Assembly (NCBI GenBank): GCA_041490825.1
Contig: JBGPTW010000002.1
Span: 28,445 to 92,444, forward strand
Origin: Candidatus Methylomirabilia bacterium
GTDB taxonomy: Bacteria > Methylomirabilota > Methylomirabilia > Rokubacteriales > CSP1-6
Reading direction: 5' to 3'
Length of the DNA stretch: 64,000 nt
In this document: positions 1 to 14,984 of the stretch, in pieces
How positions within the stretch are numbered: position 1 is the first letter of the stretch
Layout: each line of letters begins with the position of its first letter
Notes under the pieces: generated by a model
The model's database searches: none
Told to the model about the DNA's origin: nothing
The model's input: only the letters and a program-made list of their open reading frames with translations
Made by a program: the position numbers and the translations under genes

Positions 1-45
1 CTGAGGGAGCACTGGGGCGACGTGGAGATCATCCACCTTACCTGA
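1..45 (+). CDS. 3' end (14 codons, ...LREHWGDVEIIHLT*) of an upstream gene running off the window; function unknown
   Basis: Open frame from window edge to TGA at 43-45, followed by GAGGAG SD of next gene; too short to identify. Confidence 0.3.
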   Translation: MREHWGDVEIIHLT

Positions 46-100
46 GTCCGGGAGCGGGGCGGTCGCAGCACGCGACCAGCACGCATCTGAGGAGTGAGGA

Positions 101-3436
<3,336 letters not shown>

Positions 3437-3462
3437 GTGGGACTTCTTGGAGACGTAACAGC

Positions 3463-4426
3463 TTACAGCGCGCGACCCCAGATCATCGCCAAATTCTCTA
3501 GGAGCGGCAAAGGGAACGACGCGGCCCAGGCATCCCGCAGTCGAAAGGCGTCGCGTTCAAGCCGCTCGAACACCATGAGCGCCTCCGGCTGGAATATGAG
3601 CGGATTGCATCGGTCGTCATCGCGATAGGCCTCGAAAAGTTCATCGAGCTTCTGCCGGTTCCTGGCAACGAAACTCCGTATCAGCTCGCCGAACTCCTTC
3701 CGCTCGCGAGCATCGTAGAGTCCTTCGAGTACTGGAATGATGTCGAGCGACAGCTCCCGGTCATAGGGGCGAGCCACAAACTGGTAGAAATGTTGCTCTA
3801 TCTCTGCCAACACTCCGGCTTCCGGTGCTCCAGGCAGCATCTCAATTGCCTTTCGGGCGTCCTGCACGGTCTCATCGAACAACTCGATCAACGCCATCAA
3901 CCGGTAGATCCGCCGCTTAATTTCAATCGGAGTGTCTCGCGCCGGCTTGTAGAGAAGGCGATGCGACACATCGGCCCAGCAGTTCTGTGCTCGGGTGTGT
4001 ATCTGTACTTCCGCGATCAGACCCCGCCACTCAGCGCGCGCGACATCACCATCGTGGAGCGATACATCGAAGTGGACACCGAGATAACCCAGCTCGTGGT
4101 AATCAAGCCCGAGCGTCTTGTTCTCATATCGTTCGACAGCAAATCTTGCGCGAATGACTTCCTCCACGACTGGAACGTCGTCGACGAACGTCACGACAAC
4201 GCGAATCCCGGCTTTGTCGTGAATCTCTTCGTACGGCGCGCCGTATGATTTTCCTCAACACCTTCTTGAGAAGGCTGGCGACCTCCTTCGGTCTCGCATC
4301 AACCGAGCACGGTAGCCCGCGCCGCTGGAGGTCGGTTTTCAGGAGCGTGCGAATATGATCGCCGAGAGCTCCATAGACGGGGCGGTCAGCGATCCAGCGT
4401 TCACGGATCGGTTCGAGGTCGATCAT
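3463..4426 (-). pseudogene. RelA/SpoT-domain (small alarmone synthetase / toxSAS-like nucleotidyltransferase) gene interrupted by a 1-nt frameshift
   Basis: Two overlapping frames (4124..4426 and 3463..4194) together give a RelA/SpoT synthetase fold: N-part ...ARPKEVASLLKKVLRK, C-part ...YGAPYEEIHDKAGIRVVV...LDYHELGYLGVHFDV...AEVQIHTRAQNCWADVSHRLLYK. Frame switch maps to an A4/T4 run near 4246-4256. ATGA overlap with upstream gene. Confidence 0.75.
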
Positions 4427-5469
4427 CGCTTGCCGTGAACGCGATCCAATCGGTCTTCAATCTGAACTCGTGTCCGTCCATCGTCGAGCTCAGACATCTG
4501 GACATGATCGCGGAATGACTCCGGTGAGCCCAGGACCGCCAGCCCGCTAGAGGAGTCGAGCTGAAGGCGCTGAATCTGACCCGCGATGAGCGTCGTGTCC
4601 TTCTGAACTACCGTCGTTGAGACATCCTTCGTTTCGAGAAACGTGATGTAACGCTGGCGATCATCGAGTTCGAGATGGCGCTGAGCAAAATCGCGAGGCC
4701 GTAGTAGGGTGGCGGTATCGTTCAGCTCGGCGAGCAGGGCGATGTTGTAGCGGGCCTTGAGGATGGGATCATTCACCTGCGCGTTGATGAAGTCCTCGGT
4801 CGCATTGAAGAAGCGCTTGGTACTCACGTCGGGCGCCTCCAAGAGCGTGCACCCGAGGAACCGCTTCAGAAAGAAGTCAGCGACCTCGGTCTTTGGCAGG
4901 TAGCCGCGCTGTTTGTCAGAAACGGCCCCCGCGATGGTGTCACCGTCTCCATCGGGCTTGATGAAGAGGCCGATCTTGAAGACCTTCGTCTTTGCGTTTA
5001 ACATCAAGTCGCGCAGGTGTTCGATATTGAAGGTCCGCTTCTCCTCGACGCGGGCCTGTTCGACTCGTACGCCTTCCTCCTTCTCAACCTTCAGAATTGC
5101 GAGGGCGCGCCGGCCCCCCACCGCAACGCGTGCCACAATGACGAGGCCCGGGGGGTTCACGCCCGTCTGAGTCGCATATAGGTGCTGCGCAATGGCGACC
5201 GACTTCTCAACGAAGGAACGACCGTCGCCGAGATACCCGGTAACCAGGCCGGGTACGGGCGAGCCGGAGGTTGCATCGAACGCGACGTCGTATGCAGCTG
5301 TTGTCAGGCTGCCTACAATCCGCTCTTTGAAGTAGTTCTTCAGTTCTTGCGTAAGTGGGCTATCGATCTCGCTGAACACTGGCTTCGGCCCGCCGCCGCG
5401 CGCAGGACGGGGCGGCACCTCATGAACTATGAGGCGCTCGACGGCCAGTCGCCCGAGATCAATTTTCAT
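4423..5469 (-). CDS. NdpA/YejK-family (37-kDa nucleoid-associated protein-like) protein, 348 aa
   Basis: From internal Met260 of ORF 4423..6246: MKIDLGRLAVERLIVHEV... aligns with the YejK N-terminus (MSLDINQIALHQLI), and FFLKRFLGCTLLEAPDVSTKRF with the YejK FFMDFLGASEG region. The upstream 260 aa of the ORF is low-complexity and not coding. Region is visibly lower GC than flanks. Confidence 0.7.
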   Translation of the reverse strand: MKIDLGRLAVERLIVHEVPPRPARGGGPKPVFSEIDSPLTQELKNYFKERIVGSLTTAAYDVAFDATSGSPVPGLVTGYLGDGRSFVEKSVAIAQHLYATQTGVNPPGLVIVARVAVGGRRALAILKVEKEEGVRVEQARVEEKRTFNIEHLRDLMLNAKTKVFKIGLFIKPDGDGDTIAGAVSDKQRGYLPKTEVADFFLKRFLGCTLLEAPDVSTKRFFNATEDFINAQVNDPILKARYNIALLAELNDTATLLRPRDFAQRHLELDDRQRYITFLETKDVSTTVVQKDTTLIAGQIQRLQLDSSSGLAVLGSPESFRDHVQMSELDDGRTRVQIEDRLDRVHGKR

Positions 5470-5599
5470 GCGCGCGCCACAGCCTTGTGATTTTAGCAGG
5501 CCTGTGCGCCACCGGAGAACGGTGATGCTAACCGTCGCCGCCGCGGCCTTCGCCGTGCATGAGGCCGCACGGCCCGTCCGCGTGAACGCGCGCGGCTGA

Positions 5600-5827
5600 G
5601 CAACGCACGCGCGGCGATTCCACACTCGGCGCCGCGGCCAGGTCACATCGCGCCAACGCCACGTGCTGCGGATCGCGGCGGGCCGGGGTGCGGTTCGCCG
5701 TCGAGACCTCGTGTCGCGGTTCGGTATCTCGCGCGAGGCCGCGCCCGAGGACTTGGTGGCGCTCGTAAGAGCAGGGCTCCTGAGAAGATCGGGAACAGGA
5801 AGAGGCTCGACGTATTCGCCACCATGA
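5600..5827 (+). pseudogene. Orphan C-terminal winged-HTH fragment (RecG-like/HATPase_c_4-type DNA-binding tail: ...LVALVRAGLLRRSGTGRGSTYSPP*) lacking an N-terminal body
   Basis: 75-codon open frame with no ATG (only an internal GTG at 5663) ending in the characteristic L..LV..GLL.R.G.GRGT.Y motif; lies in the 590-bp divergent intergenic region. Confidence 0.4.
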
Positions 5828-6057
5828 CGCGCCCACCCCCACCACGGACTGCCCGTTACGGGGAAGGCGCCTGTGACGCTGTACCAGGTGTCGGCGCCGC
5901 CGACTGGGCCGGAGAGTTTTGCCCTGGTCGGGGAGGTTCGCCGCGAGGTCCGAAGTTGGCGCGGTGGCGGCGGAACCAAGCCTCTGGCCTTCGGAGCGGC
6001 CGGAAGAAGAGTGAGGAACCCCCTGGGCTCGTGTAGAGTCTGACTTCGAAGGACACC

Positions 6058-7044
6058 ATGGCGACCAAGGACCACGTCAGGGCGCTCGTCCAGAGTCACG
6101 CCGAGGGCGACGACGAGCGGTTCTACGCGATCGCGATGCAGGTCGCTGCTCAGGCGGCACGTCAGGGGCATACGAGATTCGCCCAGGAACTCCGTGACCT
6201 GGTCGATCAGGCGAAGGGTCGCACGAAGAACGCGTCGCCAGGACAACGGACCAGACCGGTGCCTGTCGTTCAGCCGCGAGGTGAACTCGCCGGCCTGTTA
6301 ACAGCGACCTACCCGAAGACTCGGCTCGGCGACATGGCCCTGGATGACGCGGTGAGGTCCCGAATTGACCGCGTACTCCTCGAGCAGCGCCAACGAGAGC
6401 GGATCCACGAGCACGGATTGTCGCCTCTCCGGAAGCTTCTCCTCATCGGCCCACCGGGGACCGGGAAAACGATGACGGCAGCCGCGATGGCGGGCGAGCT
6501 TGGGTTGCCGCTGTTCAGCATCCAGCTCGACGGGCTGATCACGAAGTACCTCGGCGAGACGGCCGCCAAGCTGCGACTCATCTTCGACGCGATACAGCAG
6601 ACTCGGGCGGTGTTCCTCTTTGACGAGTTCGACGCCCTCGGCGGGGAGCGCGCCGCGAGGAATGAGGTTGGCGAGATTCGCCGCGTGCTGAACTCCTTCC
6701 TCCAGTTTCTGGAGCAAGACGAGTCAGACAGCATCATCGTCGCGGCCACGAACCACCCGAAGCTGCTGGACCAAGCGCTCTTCCGGCGCTTCGATACGGT
6801 CATCGAGTACGTGCTGCCATCGCCAGGAATCGCGGAGAAGATCCTCCGCGGGAGGCTCGCGTTCCTGGGCACGTCACGCATCGAATGGCCGCAGGCCGTC
6901 GAGGCCGCCGAGGGCTTGAGCCACGCCGACATCACCCGTGCTTGCGAACACGCGGCGAAGAAGGCGATCCTCGCGCACCGTACAAGGGTCGAGACCGAAG
7001 AGGTCACGGAAGCGCTCAAAGAGCGACTGCCTGCGCGCGGATAA
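6058..7044 (+). CDS. AAA+ ATPase (classic AAA clade), first gene of ATPase + S8 protease pair (ietA-like)
   Basis: Walker A LLIGPPGTGKTM, Walker B VFLFDEFDAL, sensor-1 VAATNHP, arginine finger region LFRRFD; GAAGGA SD; followed 20 nt later by the protease gene. Confidence 0.85.
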   Translation: MATKDHVRALVQSHAEGDDERFYAIAMQVAAQAARQGHTRFAQELRDLVDQAKGRTKNASPGQRTRPVPVVQPRGELAGLLTATYPKTRLGDMALDDAVRSRIDRVLLEQRQRERIHEHGLSPLRKLLLIGPPGTGKTMTAAAMAGELGLPLFSIQLDGLITKYLGETAAKLRLIFDAIQQTRAVFLFDEFDALGGERAARNEVGEIRRVLNSFLQFLEQDESDSIIVAATNHPKLLDQALFRRFDTVIEYVLPSPGIAEKILRGRLAFLGTSRIEWPQAVEAAEGLSHADITRACEHAAKKAILAHRTRVETEEVTEALKERLPARG

Positions 7045-7064
7045 CTGCCGGGGTCGGTGACCAA

Positions 7065-9605
7065 ATGCCCGCTCGACGTAACCGACGGCACCTTATCGTT
7101 CCCACCCCTCCGGCGACGGAGGCGTATACCCCGCATGGTCGGAAGATCAAGCGGCCGTCTTTCCCGGAACCGGCGAACCGACGGAGACACGCCATTGCTC
7201 TGCGGACGGCCCTCACGCGAGCTCAGCAAGAGGCGACCAGATCCCGACAGACCGTGGGAATCGCGGTCCACGGAGCCCAACCCGGCTTGTACATTCAGTT
7301 CGAGAGCCCGCCCGGCGTGGAGCTGAAGCTTGAATCGTTGGAGGACCGCCGCAAAGGAATCGAGATCGTTGCGGTTCAGATGGTACGCCGGCCGGACGAG
7401 CCCGCGATTCAGTTCGCGACGGTTTTTGTTCCCGATGGTGCACTGAAGCACTTCGTCACGAGGTTTGAGCAGTACTCGGAAGAGCGGACCTCGAAAGGTG
7501 AGCCGCGACACAAGGACATGGTGGACCGTATCGCTGCCCTGCGCCGAGCGAGCCTCCGCGCACTTTGGACGGACGACCCTGAGGTCTACCCTGCGGCCGG
7601 CGAGTCAATCTGGTGGGAGGTCTGGTTACGCCGGCATGACGGTCGGGAGCTCGAGCGGATGCTGGAGTTCGCCAACCTCGTTCACCTCACGGTGGGCGAG
7701 CGCCGCCTGGCCTTCGACGACCGGCTCATCGTTCTCGCGCGGGGAACCGAGGAGCAGCTCTCGGGATCGCTCGACGTTTTGAATGACGTTGCCGAGGTCC
7801 GCAAGGCCAAGGAGAGCGCTGCGTTCTTCGTCGACGCTGCGCCTGACGAGCAGGCAGCGTGGACCGATGACCTGAAGCGACGGACGATCTTGCCCTCGCC
7901 GGAGGCCCCGGCAGTTTGCATTCTGGATAGCGGAGTGAACCGTGGCCACCCGTTGCTCGAAGACGTGATCGGGCCGAACGACGCAATGGCAGTCGACCCA
8001 ACATGGGGCGCTCACGACGACGGCGGAGGCCCCGATAACATGGGGCACGGCACCGAGATGGCCGGGCTCGCGGCGTACGGTGACCTCGCCGACGTGCTCG
8101 CCTCCGGCGCGCCCACCCGCCTGTGGCACTGGGTCGAGTCGGTGAAGATTCTCCCACCTACCGGGGCCAATCCGCCCGAGCTGTACGGCGCCGTGACAGC
8201 GCAAGCGGTGAGCCGTCCAGAGGTGAACACGCCGCAACGCCTGCGGGCGTTTTCGCTTGCGGTGACCTCGACCGACAAACGCGATCGCGGTGAGCCGACG
8301 TCCTGGTCGGCCGCCATCGACGCCTTGGCGGCTGGCCGCACGTTCGACCCGGCGAGCCACGGATTGGTGTATCTCGATCCCGCCGAAGAGCAGGCGCACC
8401 GTCTCTTCGTCGTCAGTGCCGGCAACGTGTCAGCAGATCGGCTCGACGTCGCCCACCTCGACCGCAGCGATGTGGAGCCCGTACACGATCCAGCGCAGGC
8501 GTGGAACGCGCTGACCGTAGGCGCATACACCGAGAAGGCAGCCATCACGGATCCCGCGTGGGATGGATGGTCTCCGATCACTCCGCCCGGGGACCTGTCG
8601 CCGTGGAGCACGACGTCCGTTGCATTCCAGGATGCGTGGCCAATCAAGCCAGACGTGGTGTTCGAAGGCGGGAACGCCGCCCACGACGGGACCACGATTG
8701 ACTTTCCGGTCGCTGAGCTTTGCGTGCTGTCGACGTATTACAAACCGACGGAGAGATCGTTCGTCCTGTCCTGCGCCACAAGCGCCGCGACGGCTCAGGT
8801 GGCCCACATGGCCGGAGTCATTCGTGCGGAATATCCTGAGTTGTCGCCGGAGACCGTCCGCGCTCTCATTGTTCATTCGGCCGAATGGACGAAGGCGATG
8901 CAGGCGCGCCTTCGGGGCGCGGGTGGTAAGCGCGCCCGGGCGAAGCTGGTGCGACGTTACGGCTTCGGTGTTCCGAACCTCGACCACGCCCTGCGGAGTG
9001 CCAGCGACGCGCTGACGCTCGTGGTGCAAGCCGAGATCCGGCCCTTTGCCGACGGGAAGATGCGCGAGATGCATCTTCACCAACTGCCGTGGCCGAAGGA
9101 GGTGCTCGAAGAACTGGGGCAAACGTTTGTTCGATTGCGCGTGACGCTCTCCTACTTCATCGAGCCGAACCCTGGCCGGCGGGGATGGACCAGGAGACAC
9201 AGGTACGCGTCACATGGCCTTCGGTTCGAAGTGAAGTCCCCGACCGAAACCATCGACGATTTCCGCAAGAGCTTGAACAAGCGAGCGCTGGAGGAGGAGG
9301 AAGGCAAACCGGCCACCGGTGGCGATTCCAGCGGGTGGTTTCTCGGTGAGCAGACCCGCTTCAAGGGCTCGATCCACTCGGATACGTGGAGCGGCACGGC
9401 GGTGGACCTCGCTGAGCGCGGCGTGATCGGCGTCTACCCAGTGTCGGGGTGGTGGAAGGACCAGCCCAAGCGAGACAGAAGCCAGCTCGGTGCGCGTTAC
9501 GCGCTCGTGGTCGGCATCAGCACCGAGGCTCAGGAGGTCGACATCTGGACACCGGTTGCGCAGCAGATCGGCGTGCCGATCCAGGAAACGGTGCTCGAGG
9601 TCTGA
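7065..9605 (+). CDS. Subtilisin-like S8 serine peptidase with long N- and C-terminal extra domains (ietS-like)
   Basis: Catalytic Asp (CILDSGVNRGHP), His (MGHGTEMAGLAAYG), Asn (VVSAGNVS) and Ser (SCATSAATAQVAHMAGV) motifs all intact; about 250 aa N-terminal and about 250 aa C-terminal non-catalytic regions; start taken at first ATG after the upstream stop. Confidence 0.85.
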   Translation: MPARRNRRHLIVPTPPATEAYTPHGRKIKRPSFPEPANRRRHAIALRTALTRAQQEATRSRQTVGIAVHGAQPGLYIQFESPPGVELKLESLEDRRKGIEIVAVQMVRRPDEPAIQFATVFVPDGALKHFVTRFEQYSEERTSKGEPRHKDMVDRIAALRRASLRALWTDDPEVYPAAGESIWWEVWLRRHDGRELERMLEFANLVHLTVGERRLAFDDRLIVLARGTEEQLSGSLDVLNDVAEVRKAKESAAFFVDAAPDEQAAWTDDLKRRTILPSPEAPAVCILDSGVNRGHPLLEDVIGPNDAMAVDPTWGAHDDGGGPDNMGHGTEMAGLAAYGDLADVLASGAPTRLWHWVESVKILPPTGANPPELYGAVTAQAVSRPEVNTPQRLRAFSLAVTSTDKRDRGEPTSWSAAIDALAAGRTFDPASHGLVYLDPAEEQAHRLFVVSAGNVSADRLDVAHLDRSDVEPVHDPAQAWNALTVGAYTEKAAITDPAWDGWSPITPPGDLSPWSTTSVAFQDAWPIKPDVVFEGGNAAHDGTTIDFPVAELCVLSTYYKPTERSFVLSCATSAATAQVAHMAGVIRAEYPELSPETVRALIVHSAEWTKAMQARLRGAGGKRARAKLVRRYGFGVPNLDHALRSASDALTLVVQAEIRPFADGKMREMHLHQLPWPKEVLEELGQTFVRLRVTLSYFIEPNPGRRGWTRRHRYASHGLRFEVKSPTETIDDFRKSLNKRALEEEEGKPATGGDSSGWFLGEQTRFKGSIHSDTWSGTAVDLAERGVIGVYPVSGWWKDQPKRDRSQLGARYALVVGISTEAQEVDIWTPVAQQIGVPIQETVLEV

Positions 9606-9796
9606 TCGATGGCGGTAGCCGCGTGTGTCGTCTTCGGCAGACGAACCCCCACTCGATCGATTTGGTTCGAGCGTGGTTCCAACTCACCCAAATTCAGTCG
9701 GCACAGCACGATGCAGGCCACCTCACCACCCCTCGGAATCTCGCGCGCTTGCATCGCCGTGCATGTCAGTGCGCGGGTCGCCGGGCTCACTGCCAG

Positions 9797-10208
9797 TCAG
9801 AAAGCGAGCGCCCGCTCGAGCGCGCCGGCCTCGACCTCTTCCAGCGCATAGCGGACACGAAGCATGGGAGGCTTCACGCGAAGCCTCCGGCGAAGGTCGA
9901 TGGGCGTGCCGAGCAACACGACGTCGCATGGCACGGCGTCGATCGTCTTCGCGAGGTCGTCGATCTGGGTCGTGCTGTACCCCATGGCCGGAAGGACGGG
10001 GCCGAGCGACGGGAAGGTGGCGAACGTGTCGCGCAGGCTTCCCGAGCACCCGGCGCCCCGCCAGCGGCACGTCACTCTCGAGCTGGACCGGCAAGCGTGT
10101 GTCGACGATGCGCGCGGTCGGATTGAGCGCGCGGATTGCCACGCGGGTGGCTTCGATCGCGGCCGCTGGCGCCGTGTCTTCTTTGACGACCACCGCGACA
10201 TCGGCCAT
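9797..10208 (-). pseudogene. Small hypothetical protein (about 137 aa) with an apparent frameshift
   Basis: Protein-like N-part MADVAVVVKEDTAPAAAIEATRVAIRALNPTARIVDTRLPVQLE in one frame and C-part SLRDTFATFPSLGPVLPAMGYSTTQIDDLAKTIDAVPCDVVLLGTPIDL...ERALAF in another; junction in a GC homopolymer-rich stretch near 10040-10060. Confidence 0.4.
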
Positions 10209-10445
10209 CCGGAGATTCGTTTCGCCCGGATGATAAGTGTCTTCGTCATGATGGCGACAGCCGAGAGCAACTCGAATGCCACGCTCGATTCCAGGAATTT
10301 CGCTGGATGAACGGGGAGTCACCGTCCCACCTGGGGCGGAGGTCCCCGGCCCCGGGCCGGTCATCCTGCCCATGTCCCTGAAATGGCGACGCGGCAAGCC
10401 TGGCACCGGGGTTGCTCATTGCTCGATGGACCGGAGGCCAAGGCG

Positions 10446-10886
10446 ATGAAGAGAATCCTTCACCCGACTGACTTCTCGGAGTGCGCGCAGAAAGCGCTGG
10501 AGGAGGCGACCGCGTTGATCCGCGCCTGCGGCGGGGAGCTGATCCTGCTCCACGTCTCCGTGGAAGCGCCGCTTTATAATGAAGCCATGTTCGGCCTCGC
10601 CAAGCCGCAAGCCGTCTACGAAGCGCAGCGAAAGTGGGCGGAAGCCGAGCTCGCCGAACGGGCGGCGAAGCTGACCGCAAGCGGTGTGGCCACCCGTAGC
10701 CTCGTGCGCTCCGGTGTGCCGTTCGAGGAGATCGTCGAGGTCGCGCAGAAAGAGGCGTGCGAACTGATCGTCATAGGCACCCACGGCTTCGGCGGCCTCA
10801 ACCGCTGGCTGCTCGGCAGCGTGGCCGATCGCGTCGTGCGGTTGGCGTCGTGCCCGGTGATGACGGTCAGGATGCCGGCCGCCTGA
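10446..10886 (+). CDS. Universal stress protein (UspA family, single domain)
   Basis: MKRILHPTDFSE...LILLHV...VIGTHGFGGLNRWLLGSVADRVVRLASCPVMTV: canonical Usp ATP-binding motif G-2x-G-9x-G(S/T); GGAGG SD. Confidence 0.85.
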   Translation: MKRILHPTDFSECAQKALEEATALIRACGGELILLHVSVEAPLYNEAMFGLAKPQAVYEAQRKWAEAELAERAAKLTASGVATRSLVRSGVPFEEIVEVAQKEACELIVIGTHGFGGLNRWLLGSVADRVVRLASCPVMTVRMPAA

Positions 10887-10905
10887 GATCACGACGATCG
10901 TTCCA

Positions 10906-11787
10906 ATGGCCATCGCCAAGTTCCCCATCGTCGTAGGCACGGACGGCTCCTCGACGGCCGGGGCTGCGCTCGCAACCATGCGGATGTTCCCCTGGCCGGA
11001 GGGCGCCAAGGTCCACGCTGTCGTGGCCCGGCGCACGCGCGCGACGGCGGGACGGCCTCGCTACGTCGTCATGGCCTTCGACCGGGCGTTTGCGAAGGCC
11101 GCGTCCGACGCGCGAGCGCTCCTCTCGCGGCGGTGGCCCGACGTCGGCGTCACCGTGCTCGACAAAAGGCCTGTCGAGGCACTCCTTGCCGAGGCCCGCC
11201 GGGTCGGGGCAAAAGCGATCGTCGTCGGCTGGCGCGGTCACGGTCCCATCGGCCGCTTGCTGCTCGGCAGCGTGTCGCGAGGCATCGTGCGGCACGCGAC
11301 GTGTCCCGTGCTCGTGGTGCGGCAACGGTCGAAGCAGGTCCGGCGGCTGTTGATCGGCATCGACGGATCAGACAACGCGCGTCGGGCCGTTGACCTTGTC
11401 ACGGCGTTTCCGCCGCCCGCCGGCGCGTCGGTCACGCTCGTGACTGCGCTCGAGCCGATCTCGCTGCCGTCGCGCGCACTGCTCCCGGCTCAGGTGCGCC
11501 ACAGAGTTGGCCAGGAGCTGATGGCGCTGAAGGCCGAGATGGCCAGCAACGCGAGGCGCGAGCTCGACAACGCTTCCGCGAGACTGCGCGACGCGGGCTG
11601 GCGAGTTCGCACGATCCTGTCGTCCGGCACGCCACTGGCCGTGCTCCTGACCGCGGTCCGGCAGACCCAGGCCGATGTCCTGGTGATTGGCGCTCGTGGC
11701 TCTACCGGGCTGCAGCGATTCGTCCTTGGCAGCGTCGCCGAAGGCGCGTTGAATCGCTGCGCGATCCCGGTGTTCCTCGTGCGCTGA
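10906..11787 (+). CDS. Universal stress protein with tandem Usp domains
   Basis: Two repeats each ending in ...VGWRGHGPIGRLLLGSVSRGIVRHATCPVLVV / ...IGARGSTGLQRFVLGSVAEGALNRCAIPVFLV. Confidence 0.85.
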   Translation: MAIAKFPIVVGTDGSSTAGAALATMRMFPWPEGAKVHAVVARRTRATAGRPRYVVMAFDRAFAKAASDARALLSRRWPDVGVTVLDKRPVEALLAEARRVGAKAIVVGWRGHGPIGRLLLGSVSRGIVRHATCPVLVVRQRSKQVRRLLIGIDGSDNARRAVDLVTAFPPPAGASVTLVTALEPISLPSRALLPAQVRHRVGQELMALKAEMASNARRELDNASARLRDAGWRVRTILSSGTPLAVLLTAVRQTQADVLVIGARGSTGLQRFVLGSVAEGALNRCAIPVFLVR

Positions 11788-12068
11788 GCCTCGGCGCCGC
11801 CGCGTCCCGCCTCTACCGCTCGAGCACCTGTTCCTGAGGCACCATGATGAGGCGCCCCCACCACTGCTCCGCATCGGCACAGGCGATATCCGGGGCGCTC
11901 CGGCTCTCGGTGGGGCCGGCACGCCACGATTGAGGCGGATGAGGGGCAGCCGATGGCGCCCAGGGTCTGGCCAAGCCCGCGAATTCTTCGGCGACGAGCT
12001 CGGCATCACCCATGCAGTAGTTCGACGTGTCGCTGAAGATGAGGCTCATGGCCTCGAAGGAGAGAACG

Positions 12069-12953
12069 ATGCGCGTGCTGCTGGCCACCGATGGATCCGA
12101 CGATGCGCGGACGGCGACCGAATGGCTGAGCGCGTTTCCCCTCGCGCCGTCGACGAAGGCGCTCGTCGTGACGGTGGCTCTACCGCCTCCGTCGGCGCTC
12201 GACATTCCCACCGTCCGGGAGTTCAAGCACGAGATGGCCGAAGCCGCTCGCGTCGTGGCCGAGAGCGCGCGCGTCGTCCTCGCGCGCCGATGGGATGCCG
12301 AGGCGGTCGTTCTCGAAGGCGATCCTCGCGAGACGATCGCCGCGACGGCGAACGCGTGGTCGGCCGACATCGTCGTGGTCGGCGCTCGAGGGCTCGGCAC
12401 CTTCAAGCGGTTTCTCCTCGGCAGTGTTTCGAGCGCCATCGCACGGCACGTGCATTGCCCCGTTCTCGTCGTGAAGGGCCGGCCGGCGTCGCTTCGTACC
12501 GCGCTCGTCGCCATCGACGGCTCGCCGGACTCGATGGCGGCAGCCCGGTTCCTGGCCGCGCTCCCACTCGAGCGAACACTGACGGTGCGATTGCTGACGG
12601 CCATCGAGGGTCCGCAGTACCCGAGCGCGATCCCCGGGATCCTGGCCAAGACGCTGCACGCGGCGCTGGACGAGCTGGTGCGGGAGCAGGCGGCCGACGC
12701 CGAGAAAATTCTCGCCCGGGTCGGATCGGATTTCGTCGGACCGGCCGCGGTGATTCGGCGTGACGTGGTCGTGGGTCCGGCGGCCGACGAGATCATCCAG
12801 GCCGCGGCGGACGCGGGCGTGGATCTCGTCGTGGTCGGTGCGCGCGGGCTCGGGCCCATCGGCAAGCTCCTGCTCGGCAGCGTGTCCGAGAAAGTGCTGC
12901 ATCACGTCGACTGCCCCGTGCTGATCGTGAAGGGGCGCGAAGGGATCCCGTGA
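12069..12953 (+). CDS. Universal stress protein with tandem Usp domains
   Basis: MRVLLATDGSDD...VVGARGLGTFKRFLLGSVSSAIARHVHCPVLVV and second repeat ...VVGARGLGPIGKLLLGSVSEKVLHHVDCPVLIV; AAGGAGAG SD 5 nt upstream of ATG. Confidence 0.85.
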   Translation: MRVLLATDGSDDARTATEWLSAFPLAPSTKALVVTVALPPPSALDIPTVREFKHEMAEAARVVAESARVVLARRWDAEAVVLEGDPRETIAATANAWSADIVVVGARGLGTFKRFLLGSVSSAIARHVHCPVLVVKGRPASLRTALVAIDGSPDSMAAARFLAALPLERTLTVRLLTAIEGPQYPSAIPGILAKTLHAALDELVREQAADAEKILARVGSDFVGPAAVIRRDVVVGPAADEIIQAAADAGVDLVVVGARGLGPIGKLLLGSVSEKVLHHVDCPVLIVKGREGIP

Positions 12954-13114: not shown

Positions 13115-13130
13115 CGACGCCGCGGTGACG

Positions 13131-14984
13131 ATGGAACCCAAGCAGCGGAGGTTCTCGATCGGCTACCTCGTGATCGCCCTGATCGCGATGGTCGTCCTGC
13201 AGTCGGTCCTGTTCGCCCCTCACGCGGAGACGCTGTCGTACAGCGAGTTCAAGACGCTCGTGAGGAAGGGCAAGGTCAGCAACCTCACGCTCGACAAGCA
13301 GACCATCAGCGGCTCGCTGGCCAGCGAGGGACTCGAGGGTCTCCTCCCGAAAGAGAAGCTCGATGAGCTGAAGCGCCTGGGGGCCGGAGCGCACCCGTTC
13401 GTCACGACGCGCGTCGACGATCCCGGGCTGGTGGCGGAACTCGAGCAGGCGAGCGTCAAGTTCACGGGACGGGTGGAGAACACGTGGCTCTCGGCCCTGC
13501 TCTCCTGGGTACTTCCCGCCGTGGTGTTCGTTGGCGTCTGGCTTCTCGTCATGCGGAGGTTCGGCCCGCAGCAAGGGCTCATGGCCATCGGCAAGAGCAA
13601 GGCGAAGGTCTACGTCGAACACGAGACGGGCGTGACGTTCAACGACGTCGCGGGCATCGACGAGGCGCGCGGCGAGCTGATGGAGGTCGTGGACTTTCTC
13701 AAGAACCCCGATCGCTACCGGCGCCTCGGCGGGAAGATCCCGAAGGGCGTGCTCATCGTGGGCGCGCCCGGCACCGGCAAGACGCTGCTGGCCAAGGCCG
13801 TCGCCGGCGAGGCCGGTGTCCCCTTCTTCAGCTTGAGCGGCGCCGACTTCGTGGAGATGTTCGTCGGCGTGGGCGCCGCGCGCGTGCGCGACCTCTTCGC
13901 CCAGGCCCAGGAAAGAGCTCCGAGCATCATCTTCATCGACGAGCTGGATGCCTTGGGGAAGGCGCGCGGCATCAGTCCGATCGTGGGCGGTCACGACGAG
14001 CGCGAGCAAACGCTGAATCAACTGCTCGCGGAGATGGACGGCTTCGACACCCGGAAGGGCGTCATGATCATGGCGGCGACCAACCGGCCGGAAATCCTCG
14101 ACCCCGCGCTGCTGCGGCCCGGCCGCTTCGATCGCCAGGTCGTGCTCGACCGGCCCGACCTCAACGGTCGGGAGAAAATTCTTCGCGTGCATGTCCGCGA
14201 CGTCAAGCTGGCCCCGGGCCTCGACCTAGGGCGGGTGGCGGCCCGGACCCCCGGCTTCGTCGGCGCCGATCTCGCCAACCTCGTCAACGAAGCAGCCCTC
14301 CACGCCGCCCGGCAGGAGAAGGACGCGGTCGACATGGCCGACTTCGACGAGGCCATCGATCGCGTGGTGGGTGGGCTCGAGCGCAAGTCGCGCGTGATCA
14401 ACCCGAAGGAAAAGGAGATCGTCGCCTACCACGAAGCGGGCCATGCGCTGGTCGCAGAATCGCGCGAGCACGCGGATCGCGTCGCGAAGATCTCCGTGAT
14501 TCCCAGGGGCGTGGCCGCGCTCGGGTACACGCAGCAGCAGCCGACCGAGGATCGGTACCTGATGACTCGCACCGAGCTCCTGGAGCGGCTCGACGTGTTG
14601 CTCGGTGGCCGGGTCGCGGAAGAGCTGATCTTCGGCGACATCTCGACGGGCGCGCAGGACGATCTCCAGCGCGCCACCGACATGGCGCGCCACATGGTCG
14701 CGCGCTACGGGATGAGCGAGGCGCTCGGCCTCGCGACGTTCGAGGCCCCACGCCAGGCGCTCTTCCTCAATGTTCCATCCCCGGCCCAGCGGGAGTACAG
14801 CGAGGAGACCGCGCGGCGCATCGACGCCGAGATCCAGATGCTCCTCGAGACGGCGCACGGGCGCGTTCGCGAGACGTTGACCGCCAAGCGTGAGGTGCTC
14901 ACGTCGCTCGCCAAGCTGCTCATCGAGAAAGAAGTCGTGAGCCGGGCCGACCTCACCGCGCTCCTGGCGTCCGCGAACCCCTGA
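13131..14984 (+). CDS. ftsH: ATP-dependent zinc metalloprotease FtsH
   Basis: N-terminal TM segments, AAA module [26 protein letters not shown] region, M41 zinc motif HEAGHALV; alternative GTG start at 13125. Confidence 0.95.

Follow-up and report, generated by a model that had tools for sequence, protein, structure and literature searches.

Positions 6058-9605 of the 64,000-nucleotide (nt) stretch of Candidatus Methylomirabilia bacterium contig JBGPTW010000002.1 analysed here (the window, in whose numbering coordinates are given unless another record is named) carry two adjacent genes on the plus strand, the first encoding an AAA+ ATPase and the second a protease of the S8 (subtilase) family. 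A first-pass annotation of this DNA had likened the pair to the architecture of ietAS, a two-gene anti-phage system, and the genes are referred to below as ietA and ietS. The cassette comprises the following features (aa, amino-acid residues).

6022-6057, plus strand: short, conserved leader 5' of ietA, forming the left edge of nucleotide similarity to homologous cassettes
6058-7044, plus strand: ietA, encoding a 328-aa classic-clade AAA+ ATPase (putative antitoxin)
7045-7064, plus strand: intergenic spacer of 20 nt, read from the sequence
7065-9605, plus strand: ietS, encoding an 846-aa S8 subtilase (putative toxin/effector)
7065-7907, plus strand: N-terminal region of IetS (aa 1-281), Pfam Y4kK_N, assigned from PF27160 annotations precomputed on homologues and from AlphaFold2 models
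7608-7805, plus strand: predicted ferredoxin-like beta-alpha-beta-beta-alpha-beta module of IetS (aa 182-247), directly before the catalytic domain
7908-8969, plus strand: S8 catalytic domain of IetS (aa 282-635)
8970-9602, plus strand: C-terminal beta-rich domain of IetS (aa 636-846, about 211 aa)

IetA contains a single AAA domain (PF00004, E=4e-32). An N-terminal stretch of some 95 aa, which looks helical from the sequence alone, precedes the AAA core (aa 127-250), and a lid follows the core. Its motifs comprise Walker A (GPPGTGKT, residues 131-138), pore loop 1 (KYLGE, residues 163-167), Walker B (FLFDEFD, residues 186-192), the sensor-1 residue N232 and the arginine pair R243/R244. Because the proteins of solved structure that come closest to it are p97/Cdc48 (D2 ring) and NSF (E ~1e-46 to 1e-48), with AFG2 among the next (E ~1e-42 to 1e-48 for all three), and because the NCBIfam models that rank behind IteA are those of PAN, FtsH and Cdc48, the protein is placed in the classic clade of AAA+ ATPases; motifs and solved relatives thus agree with the first-pass description of a classic-clade enzyme with intact Walker A/B motifs and arginine finger. 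Across 82-83 homologues Walker A, Walker B and the arginine pair do not change, and 82 of 83 have a pore loop of the aromatic-hydrophobic-Gly type.

The ietA stop codon (TAA, 7042-7044) and the next ATG, at 7065, define the 20-nt gap between the two genes, which are presumably co-transcribed; the spacing was described correctly from the outset, as was the 846-aa subtilase with its D/H/N/S catalytic set. Within IetS, Peptidase_S8 (PF00082) spans residues 282-635 (E=1e-58), and the catalytic residues D288, H328, N454 and S573 are all present and kept across 82-84 homologues; the protein also retains every residue that is invariant in a 57-sequence IetS alignment. Judging from these patterns of conservation, the enzymatic centres of both IetA and IetS are under purifying selection. 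The large non-catalytic regions that had been pointed out on the protease are likewise real, amounting to about 281 aa on the N-terminal side and about 211 aa on the C-terminal side. Local Pfam searches return no model for either of them, even at E <= 10, the name Y4kK_N being taken solely from the precomputed annotations of homologues.

The start of ietS was placed at ATG 7065. A mechanically delimited 906-aa open reading frame (ORF) beginning at 6885 was rejected because of its overlap with ietA and because the extra N-terminal residues are not conserved; residues 1-36 counted from 7065 are conserved among homologues (M1, A3, R5, N6, R7, H9 and P16). The public ietS call of the Joint Genome Institute (JGI) is 783 instead of 846 aa long, with a start 189 nt too far downstream (7065-7253 are missed), so that it drops the conserved basic N-terminal tail and its Y4kK_N match falls to 'weak'. 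As read from the sequence, the N-terminus has no hydrophobic signal sequence, and IetS is therefore taken to be cytoplasmic. The guanine-cytosine (GC) content of the pair is 0.650, which ranks at the 6.9th percentile of 3.5-kb windows (the window as a whole has 0.6775) and bears out the modest lowering reported earlier; its GC content at third codon positions is 0.77-0.80, against 0.83-0.90 for neighbouring genes.

Comparison with hidden Markov models of IetA and IetS, the check suggested in the first-pass annotation, recovers both proteins. IetA matches PADLOC model PDLC02196 (1.3e-76, 256.5 bits; protein residues 3-321 on profile positions 3-319 of 374) and three other PADLOC IetA models, four altogether; IetS matches PDLC02198 (8.8e-40, 134.4 bits) and four other IetS models, five altogether, the Y4kK_N region lying outside its best-scoring stretch. 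With both genes adjacent and on the same (+) strand, the PADLOC-style arrangement of ietAS is reproduced. Moreover, the whole pair can be aligned, in unchanged order, with the founding ietAS pair, that of Agrobacterium plasmid pTiC58. Identity to the counterpart reaches 56% across 323 of 328 aa for IetA and 42% across 817 aa for IetS (E = 0), the IetS alignment covering window residues 38-835 and hence the N-terminal, catalytic and C-terminal regions. The resemblance in architecture thus reflects true homology, and the alternative offered earlier, a new ATPase-protease pair, gives way to homology with the founder of ietAS. The outcome named in advance as fatal to the ietAS idea, absence of an ietAS match combined with a conserved housekeeping context, is also not what was found: the PADLOC ietAS models match, and the context is variable and rich in defence and mobile genes.

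As a control for these scores, we used an Agrobacterium Ti-plasmid pair with 95% DNA identity to pTiC58 ietAS. On the PADLOC IetS models this pair reaches 85 bits, lower than the 134.4 bits of the window protein, whereas an Escherichia coli IncF-plasmid pair reaches 140 bits, about the same as the window IetS. The control also fails the NCBIfam anti-phage equivalogs (199 and 41 bits), which indicates that those models define a narrower clade; judged by this sequence comparison, the pTiC58-type clade is distinct from the one behind the curated NCBIfam anti-phage models. Taken together, we consider it very probable that the pair belongs to the pTiC58 (Y4kK_N) clade and is an intact ietAS cassette, that is, a mobile toxin-antitoxin/abortive-infection module residing in a chromosomal defence island.

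The dimensions of the window pair are those of its relatives. In 67 loci with a full-length pair, drawn from at least ten phyla, IetS measures 826-859 aa (median 843), IetA 324-346 aa (median 328) and the spacer between them -23 to +35 nt, most often 21; the IetS models of PADLOC have lengths of 749-855 positions. More than 6,400 IetS homologues were scored, and the 120 matches listed, leaving out the identical copy on the source contig, are 66-78% identical to the window protein and mostly 840-848 aa long. PF27160 (Y4kK_N) is precomputed on nearly all IetS homologues. An exhaustive HMMER search with IetS residues 1-282 returned 1,522 cluster representatives; in nearly all of the 150 matches listed Y4kK_N stands at the extreme N-terminus, full-length Y4kK_N proteins are 817-869 aa long, and shorter ones look like contig-end fragments. 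By this comparison the window IetS is not domain-expanded, its large N- and C-terminal regions being standard for the family. The earlier suggestion of a divergent, domain-expanded variant is therefore dropped, given the 836 aa of pTiC58 IetS, the lengths of the 67 homologues, the identity of the N-terminal region as Y4kK_N and a PADLOC score above that of the Ti-plasmid control.

The cassette travels as a unit. Of 80 homologous loci, taken from contigs of one genome per species, 79 have a gene for an IetA homologue immediately 5' of ietS and in the same orientation; in the remaining one IetS is truncated. The identities of the IetA and IetS proteins to the window pair co-vary (r = 0.96). The hosts belong to Acidobacteriota, Myxococcota, Alpha-/Beta-/Gammaproteobacteria, Planctomycetota, Gemmatimonadota, Cyanobacteria, Acidimicrobiia, Dehalococcoidia and Verrucomicrobiota, with identities of 37-77% across host groups and of 57-77% for the first seven of these groups (Acidobacteriota, Myxococcota, the three proteobacterial classes, Planctomycetota and Gemmatimonadota). 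What surrounds the pair changes from locus to locus: when 1,658 flanking ORFs from 81 loci were clustered, every family was confined to at most four loci. Consistent with this, a blastn comparison of 5470-10382 with the 80 loci finds nucleotide similarity only within 6022-9608, so that the DNA at 5470-6057 shows none before 6022 and that at 9606-10382 none beyond 9608.

Most of the 80 loci lie on chromosomes or long contigs of up to 13.8 Mb. A tblastn search of a plasmid collection returned 491 records with the cassette, 340 of them conjugative, including 54 from Agrobacterium (Ti plasmids among them), about 213 from Klebsiella and other enterobacterial plasmids. In a phage-genome collection no complete phage genome carries it, the only matches being two unannotated fragment records. 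On the basis of pairing, boundaries and distribution, the ietAS cassette is regarded as a self-contained, horizontally mobile two-gene unit.

Individual plasmid copies illustrate its variety. The closest plasmid homologue of the window IetS, at 49% identity, is that of Rhodococcus opacus pLPS8; it is split into two overlapping coding sequences (4998-7560 of the stretch examined), which suggests a frameshifted or pseudogenised copy, and lies a few kb from RAMP-superfamily CRISPR-associated genes. In the cassette of E. coli IncF plasmid pECAZ162_KPC (2959-6487 of the stretch examined), IetS is full length and 40% identical to the window protein, ietA and ietS overlap by 23 nt, and IS26, IS3 and ISKpn38 elements bracket the pair. 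The enterobacterial IncF version is the one carried by the roughly 213 Klebsiella plasmid records, all of which annotate it merely as 'S8 family peptidase'.

An AlphaFold2 model of IetS, built from the 57-sequence alignment (predicted local distance difference test score, pLDDT, 76.6; predicted template modelling score, pTM, 0.71), is composed, in order, of a basic tail (residues 1-36), a long helix (39-64), an alpha/beta module (74-139), the beta-alpha-beta-beta-alpha-beta module (182-247), a helical linker, the S8 core and the beta-rich C-terminal domain (about 640-846). No solved relative of IetS is detectable by sequence, since a phmmer search against the Protein Data Bank (PDB) gives nothing at E <= 1e-3. 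By structure, the best Foldseek matches in the PDB are pro-subtilases, namely ProN-Tk-SP (3afg, 1e-16), Tk-SP with its propeptide (9ues), EpiP and PCSK9. In fold, topology and position, the modelled 182-247 module resembles a subtilase propeptide of the I9 type. This resemblance is suggestive and not established, because ribosomal protein S6 and ACT domains match the module equally well; the Pfam I9 prodomain itself finds no match in IetS in the local search (E <= 10). As a whole, the model suggests that IetS follows the order propeptide-like module, S8 core and beta-sandwich.

What such a pair might do is indicated by experiments on its relatives. The pTiC58 protease is toxic and is neutralised by the AAA-ATPase, the pair contributing to plasmid stability and incompatibility, as relayed in a paper that cites the original work (PMC5006074). 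SgiAT of Salmonella Genomic Island 1 (SGI1) behaves as a toxin-antitoxin system and supports maintenance of the island (PMC5006074); in a Mycoplasma AAA-ATPase/subtilisin-like toxin-antitoxin pair deletion of just the ATPase gene proved impossible (PMC8562856); and toxin-antitoxin behaviour of the ietAS type is also described in PMC13069673, where defence depends on an active protease and no ietA mutant could be obtained. Phage protection has been shown for ietAS systems of Bacillus cereus m1293 and E. coli (10.1101/2022.08.27.505566; 10.1101/2022.08.21.504612), where defence takes the form of abortive infection and one phage gene on its own, yosG of SPbeta, triggers toxicity (10.1101/2022.08.27.505566). 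From these relatives we infer that IetS would be the toxin and IetA the antitoxin, and that the pair would act by abortive infection with a requirement for the protease.

In the mechanism that we propose, ietA and ietS would be transcribed together and yield two partners: a cytoplasmic subtilisin-like protease with an attached N-terminal regulatory region, including a propeptide-like fold, and a C-terminal beta-sandwich; and a presumably hexameric, classic-clade AAA+ remodelling ATPase with an intact threading pore loop. IetA would spend ATP to hold IetS harmless, probably by acting on the N-terminal tail or propeptide-like region of a zymogen-like IetS. A phage protein, or a disturbance induced by infection, would break this restraint and unleash IetS proteolysis, and the freed protease would arrest or kill the cell before the phage cycle is completed; cells losing the element would pay for it through this toxicity too, which would amount to addiction.

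Zymogen-like control through the propeptide-like module and threading by IetA, which we infer from fold and motifs only, can be put in a more specific form that is possible, if doubtful. IetS would be a zymogen whose active site is shut by the uncleaved module (aa 182-247) together with the basic tail (aa 1-36); IetA would continuously thread or reset the N-terminal region by way of KYLGE; and infection would be sensed as lost IetA activity, brought about by a phage inhibitor or by a collapse of ATP or translation, and not as loss of the antitoxin protein. If true, this would be an activity-based guard mechanism and would explain the mode of action of the whole ietAS family.

Several points weigh against the assignment of the pair to ietAS, or against the function and mechanism attached to it. 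The top-scoring IetS stretch spans about half of the PADLOC profile (the catalytic and C-terminal regions), and the PADLOC matches were judged without that tool's per-model coverage and E-value filters. Both NCBIfam anti-phage models score far below equivalog level, IteA_antiphage (NF042959) with 210.1 bits against a cutoff of 510 and IteS_antiphage (NF042956) with 67.8 bits against 900. A promoter/terminator scan finds no sigma-70-like match 5' of ietA on the plus strand; terminator-like sites occur in it at background frequency. The propeptide assignment involves a very common fold, and a model of the N-terminal domain by itself is of low confidence (pLDDT 64). Anti-phage activity has been demonstrated for other ietAS systems; the literature searched contains no experiments on the window locus or on phage defence by its clade, nor any mechanistic or structural paper on ietAS; and PMC13069673 states that both the way in which the AAA+ ATPase neutralises the protease and the anti-phage mechanism are unknown family-wide.

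The genes on either side of the cassette bear on the setting proposed for it. Within the window they are as follows, and the flanks beyond it were read on contig Ga0534150_0000056 (145,665 nt) of JGI metagenome 3300053057.

101-3436, plus strand: HmaC-like gene, encoding a 1111-aa HEPN_Swt1 and DUF499 protein (PADLOC HmaC, 1183 bits)
3463-4194, minus strand: RelA_SpoT-like gene
4423-5469, minus strand: NA37 gene (homologue of a nucleoid-associated protein)
10383-12953: three consecutive universal-stress-protein (Usp) genes, two of them tandem-domain
13125-14984: canonical FtsH gene, followed by PadR and chromate transporter genes

On the source contig the HmaC-like gene is preceded by genes for a DUF1156 methyltransferase, a DuOB-domain protein and two DUF488 proteins. 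Together they constitute an Hma-like (helicase/methylase/ATPase) defence system (1-6183 of the stretch examined, HmaC included) that is cut by the window start and lies 5' of ietAS, and it is because of this upstream system that the cassette is placed in a defence island. Homologues elsewhere keep similar company: type I restriction-modification, ThsB-TIR and DUF3800 genes in Iodidimonas; a serine recombinase and type I restriction-modification with an AAA_15 ATPase in Defluviicoccus; and HipA, dCTP deaminase and type II restriction-modification genes at a third locus. The HmaC, NA37 and RelA_SpoT-like genes were considered as further parts of ietAS and rejected, as they are not conserved beside its homologues.

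Between HmaC and the cassette, 3463-5469 is the lowest-GC region of the window (about 0.60). The 243-aa RelA_SpoT-like protein, encoded downstream of the NA37 gene, scores 28 bits against a Pfam cutoff of 27; since only profile positions 34-110 of 113 match, the synthetase fold seems to lack its N-terminal portion. Neither this gene nor NA37 is matched by a PADLOC system; a small toxin module of the alarmone-synthetase type is one possible reading, a degraded gene another. On the other side, 777 nt (9606-10382) separate ietS from the first Usp gene; they hold a minus-strand gene of 213 aa called by JGI (9723-10364), which has no Pfam family, and an overlapping minus-strand ORF (9797-10282) with a very weak match to a CobW tail (E=0.25), which may represent what is left of a gene after the cassette inserted. 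Immediately to the right of the island the sequence is that of an ordinary host, GC returning to 0.68-0.70. Rfam and tRNA scans of the whole window are empty, which leaves neither a tRNA integration site nor an RNA element, and a repeat search over 1-12000 gives short, chance-like matches and no direct repeats flanking the island.

Other explanations of the pair differ from the preferred one mainly in the role that they assign to it. That it is purely an addiction module, stabilising the island or a former plasmid by post-segregational killing and playing no part in phage defence, is unlikely, even if the nearest experimental evidence does concern stabilisation (stability and incompatibility of pTiC58, from Yamamoto 2009 as cited there, and maintenance of SGI1; PMC5006074), the clade is common on conjugative plasmids and the NCBIfam anti-phage cutoffs are missed. 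Addiction and defence are not mutually exclusive, other ietAS systems defend against phage (10.1101/2022.08.27.505566; PMC13069673), defence genes surround the pair both here and at homologous loci (Hma, type I restriction-modification, ThsB-TIR, dCTP deaminase), and chromosomes and long contigs predominate among the 80 loci.

A housekeeping ATP-dependent protease, in which an AAA+ unfoldase feeds a partner protease for protein quality control, might be suspected from a classic-clade ATPase that is related to FtsH, PAN and Cdc48, carries a pore loop and adjoins a protease gene. Subtilases, however, are not chambered proteases, relatives of IetS are toxic without the ATPase (PMC5006074, PMC8562856), and a canonical FtsH gene is already present in the window (13125-14984); together with a patchy distribution at 57-77% identity across unrelated phyla, an unconserved neighbourhood (no flanking family in more than 4 of 81 loci), plasmid carriage and atypical GC, this makes the explanation very improbable. 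Least credible of all is a decaying or inactive copy, or adjacency by chance: some neighbours do look degraded, such as the RelA_SpoT-like ORF with its match to positions 34-110 of 113 and the family-less ORF in 9723-10364, yet both ORFs of the pair are full length and retain all motifs and invariant IetS residues, and a coincidence of position is contradicted by pairing in 79 of 80 loci. The mobile ietAS cassette thus remains the explanation that we favour.

The locus itself adds little to what is catalogued, ietAS being present in PADLOC and NCBIfam and thousands of close relatives being available, and its interest stems mainly from the mechanism of the family and less from the window copy. 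The family splits into at least two clades, with experimental toxin-antitoxin evidence in the pTiC58-type clade; since the curated NCBIfam anti-phage models describe the other, annotation pipelines label pTiC58-type proteins merely 'ATP-binding protein' and 'S8 family peptidase'. The predicted order of propeptide-like fold, S8 core and beta-sandwich, combined with the conserved pore loop of IetA, offers a concrete, testable hypothesis for the mechanism of the family, and the sharp boundaries (6022-9608) and strict pairing make the cassette a clean unit for cloning.

Among known systems, the closest comparison is with pTiC58 ietAS of Agrobacterium fabrum C58 (NC_003065.3, 97873-101373), whose two genes are themselves annotated merely as 'ATP-binding protein' and 'S8 family peptidase'. 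Both pairs place the ATPase first and have a short spacer, all catalytic motifs are common to them, and their sizes are nearly the same (IetA, 328 aa in each; IetS, 836 aa in pTiC58 and 846 aa in the window). Their divergence is moderate, with the first ~37 residues of the window IetS left unaligned by BLASTP, and they differ in location, the one pair being carried by a Ti plasmid and the other by a defence island on a 146-kb metagenomic contig. SgiA/SgiT of SGI1, an experimentally validated AAA-ATPase antitoxin and subtilisin-like toxin, likewise resides on a chromosomal island; compared through published identities to pTiC58 IetA and IetS (50% and 36%; PMC5006074), it is slightly farther from them than the window pair is.

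The anti-phage ietAS systems behind the PADLOC and NCBIfam models, tested from B. cereus m1293 and E. coli, share the same two-gene architecture of an AAA+ ATPase and an S8 protease. The variant ietHAS (Liu-DS4; PMC13069673) has the IetA and IetS core in common with the window pair and adds an essential SNF2 helicase; no SNF2 helicase gene adjoins the window pair, the interval between HmaC and ietA holding the RelA_SpoT-like and NA37 genes, both on the opposite strand. Mycoplasma TA132/133 (PMC8562856), likened here by description, follows the same two-gene logic in a distant lineage, with proteins of the same order of size (353 and 757 aa).

As for the protease by itself, the pro-subtilases (Tk-SP, 3afg/9ues; KP-43, 1wmd; PCSK9; kexin/furin) are secreted or compartmental enzymes without an AAA+ partner, whereas IetS lacks a signal peptide and is longer at its N-terminus by about 180 residues. 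Despite these differences, IetS is predicted to share with them the succession of a propeptide-like ferredoxin module, an S8 core and a beta-sandwich, its modelled C-terminal domain resembling the beta-sandwich/jelly-roll domains of KP-43, Tk-SP and kexin-type subtilases.

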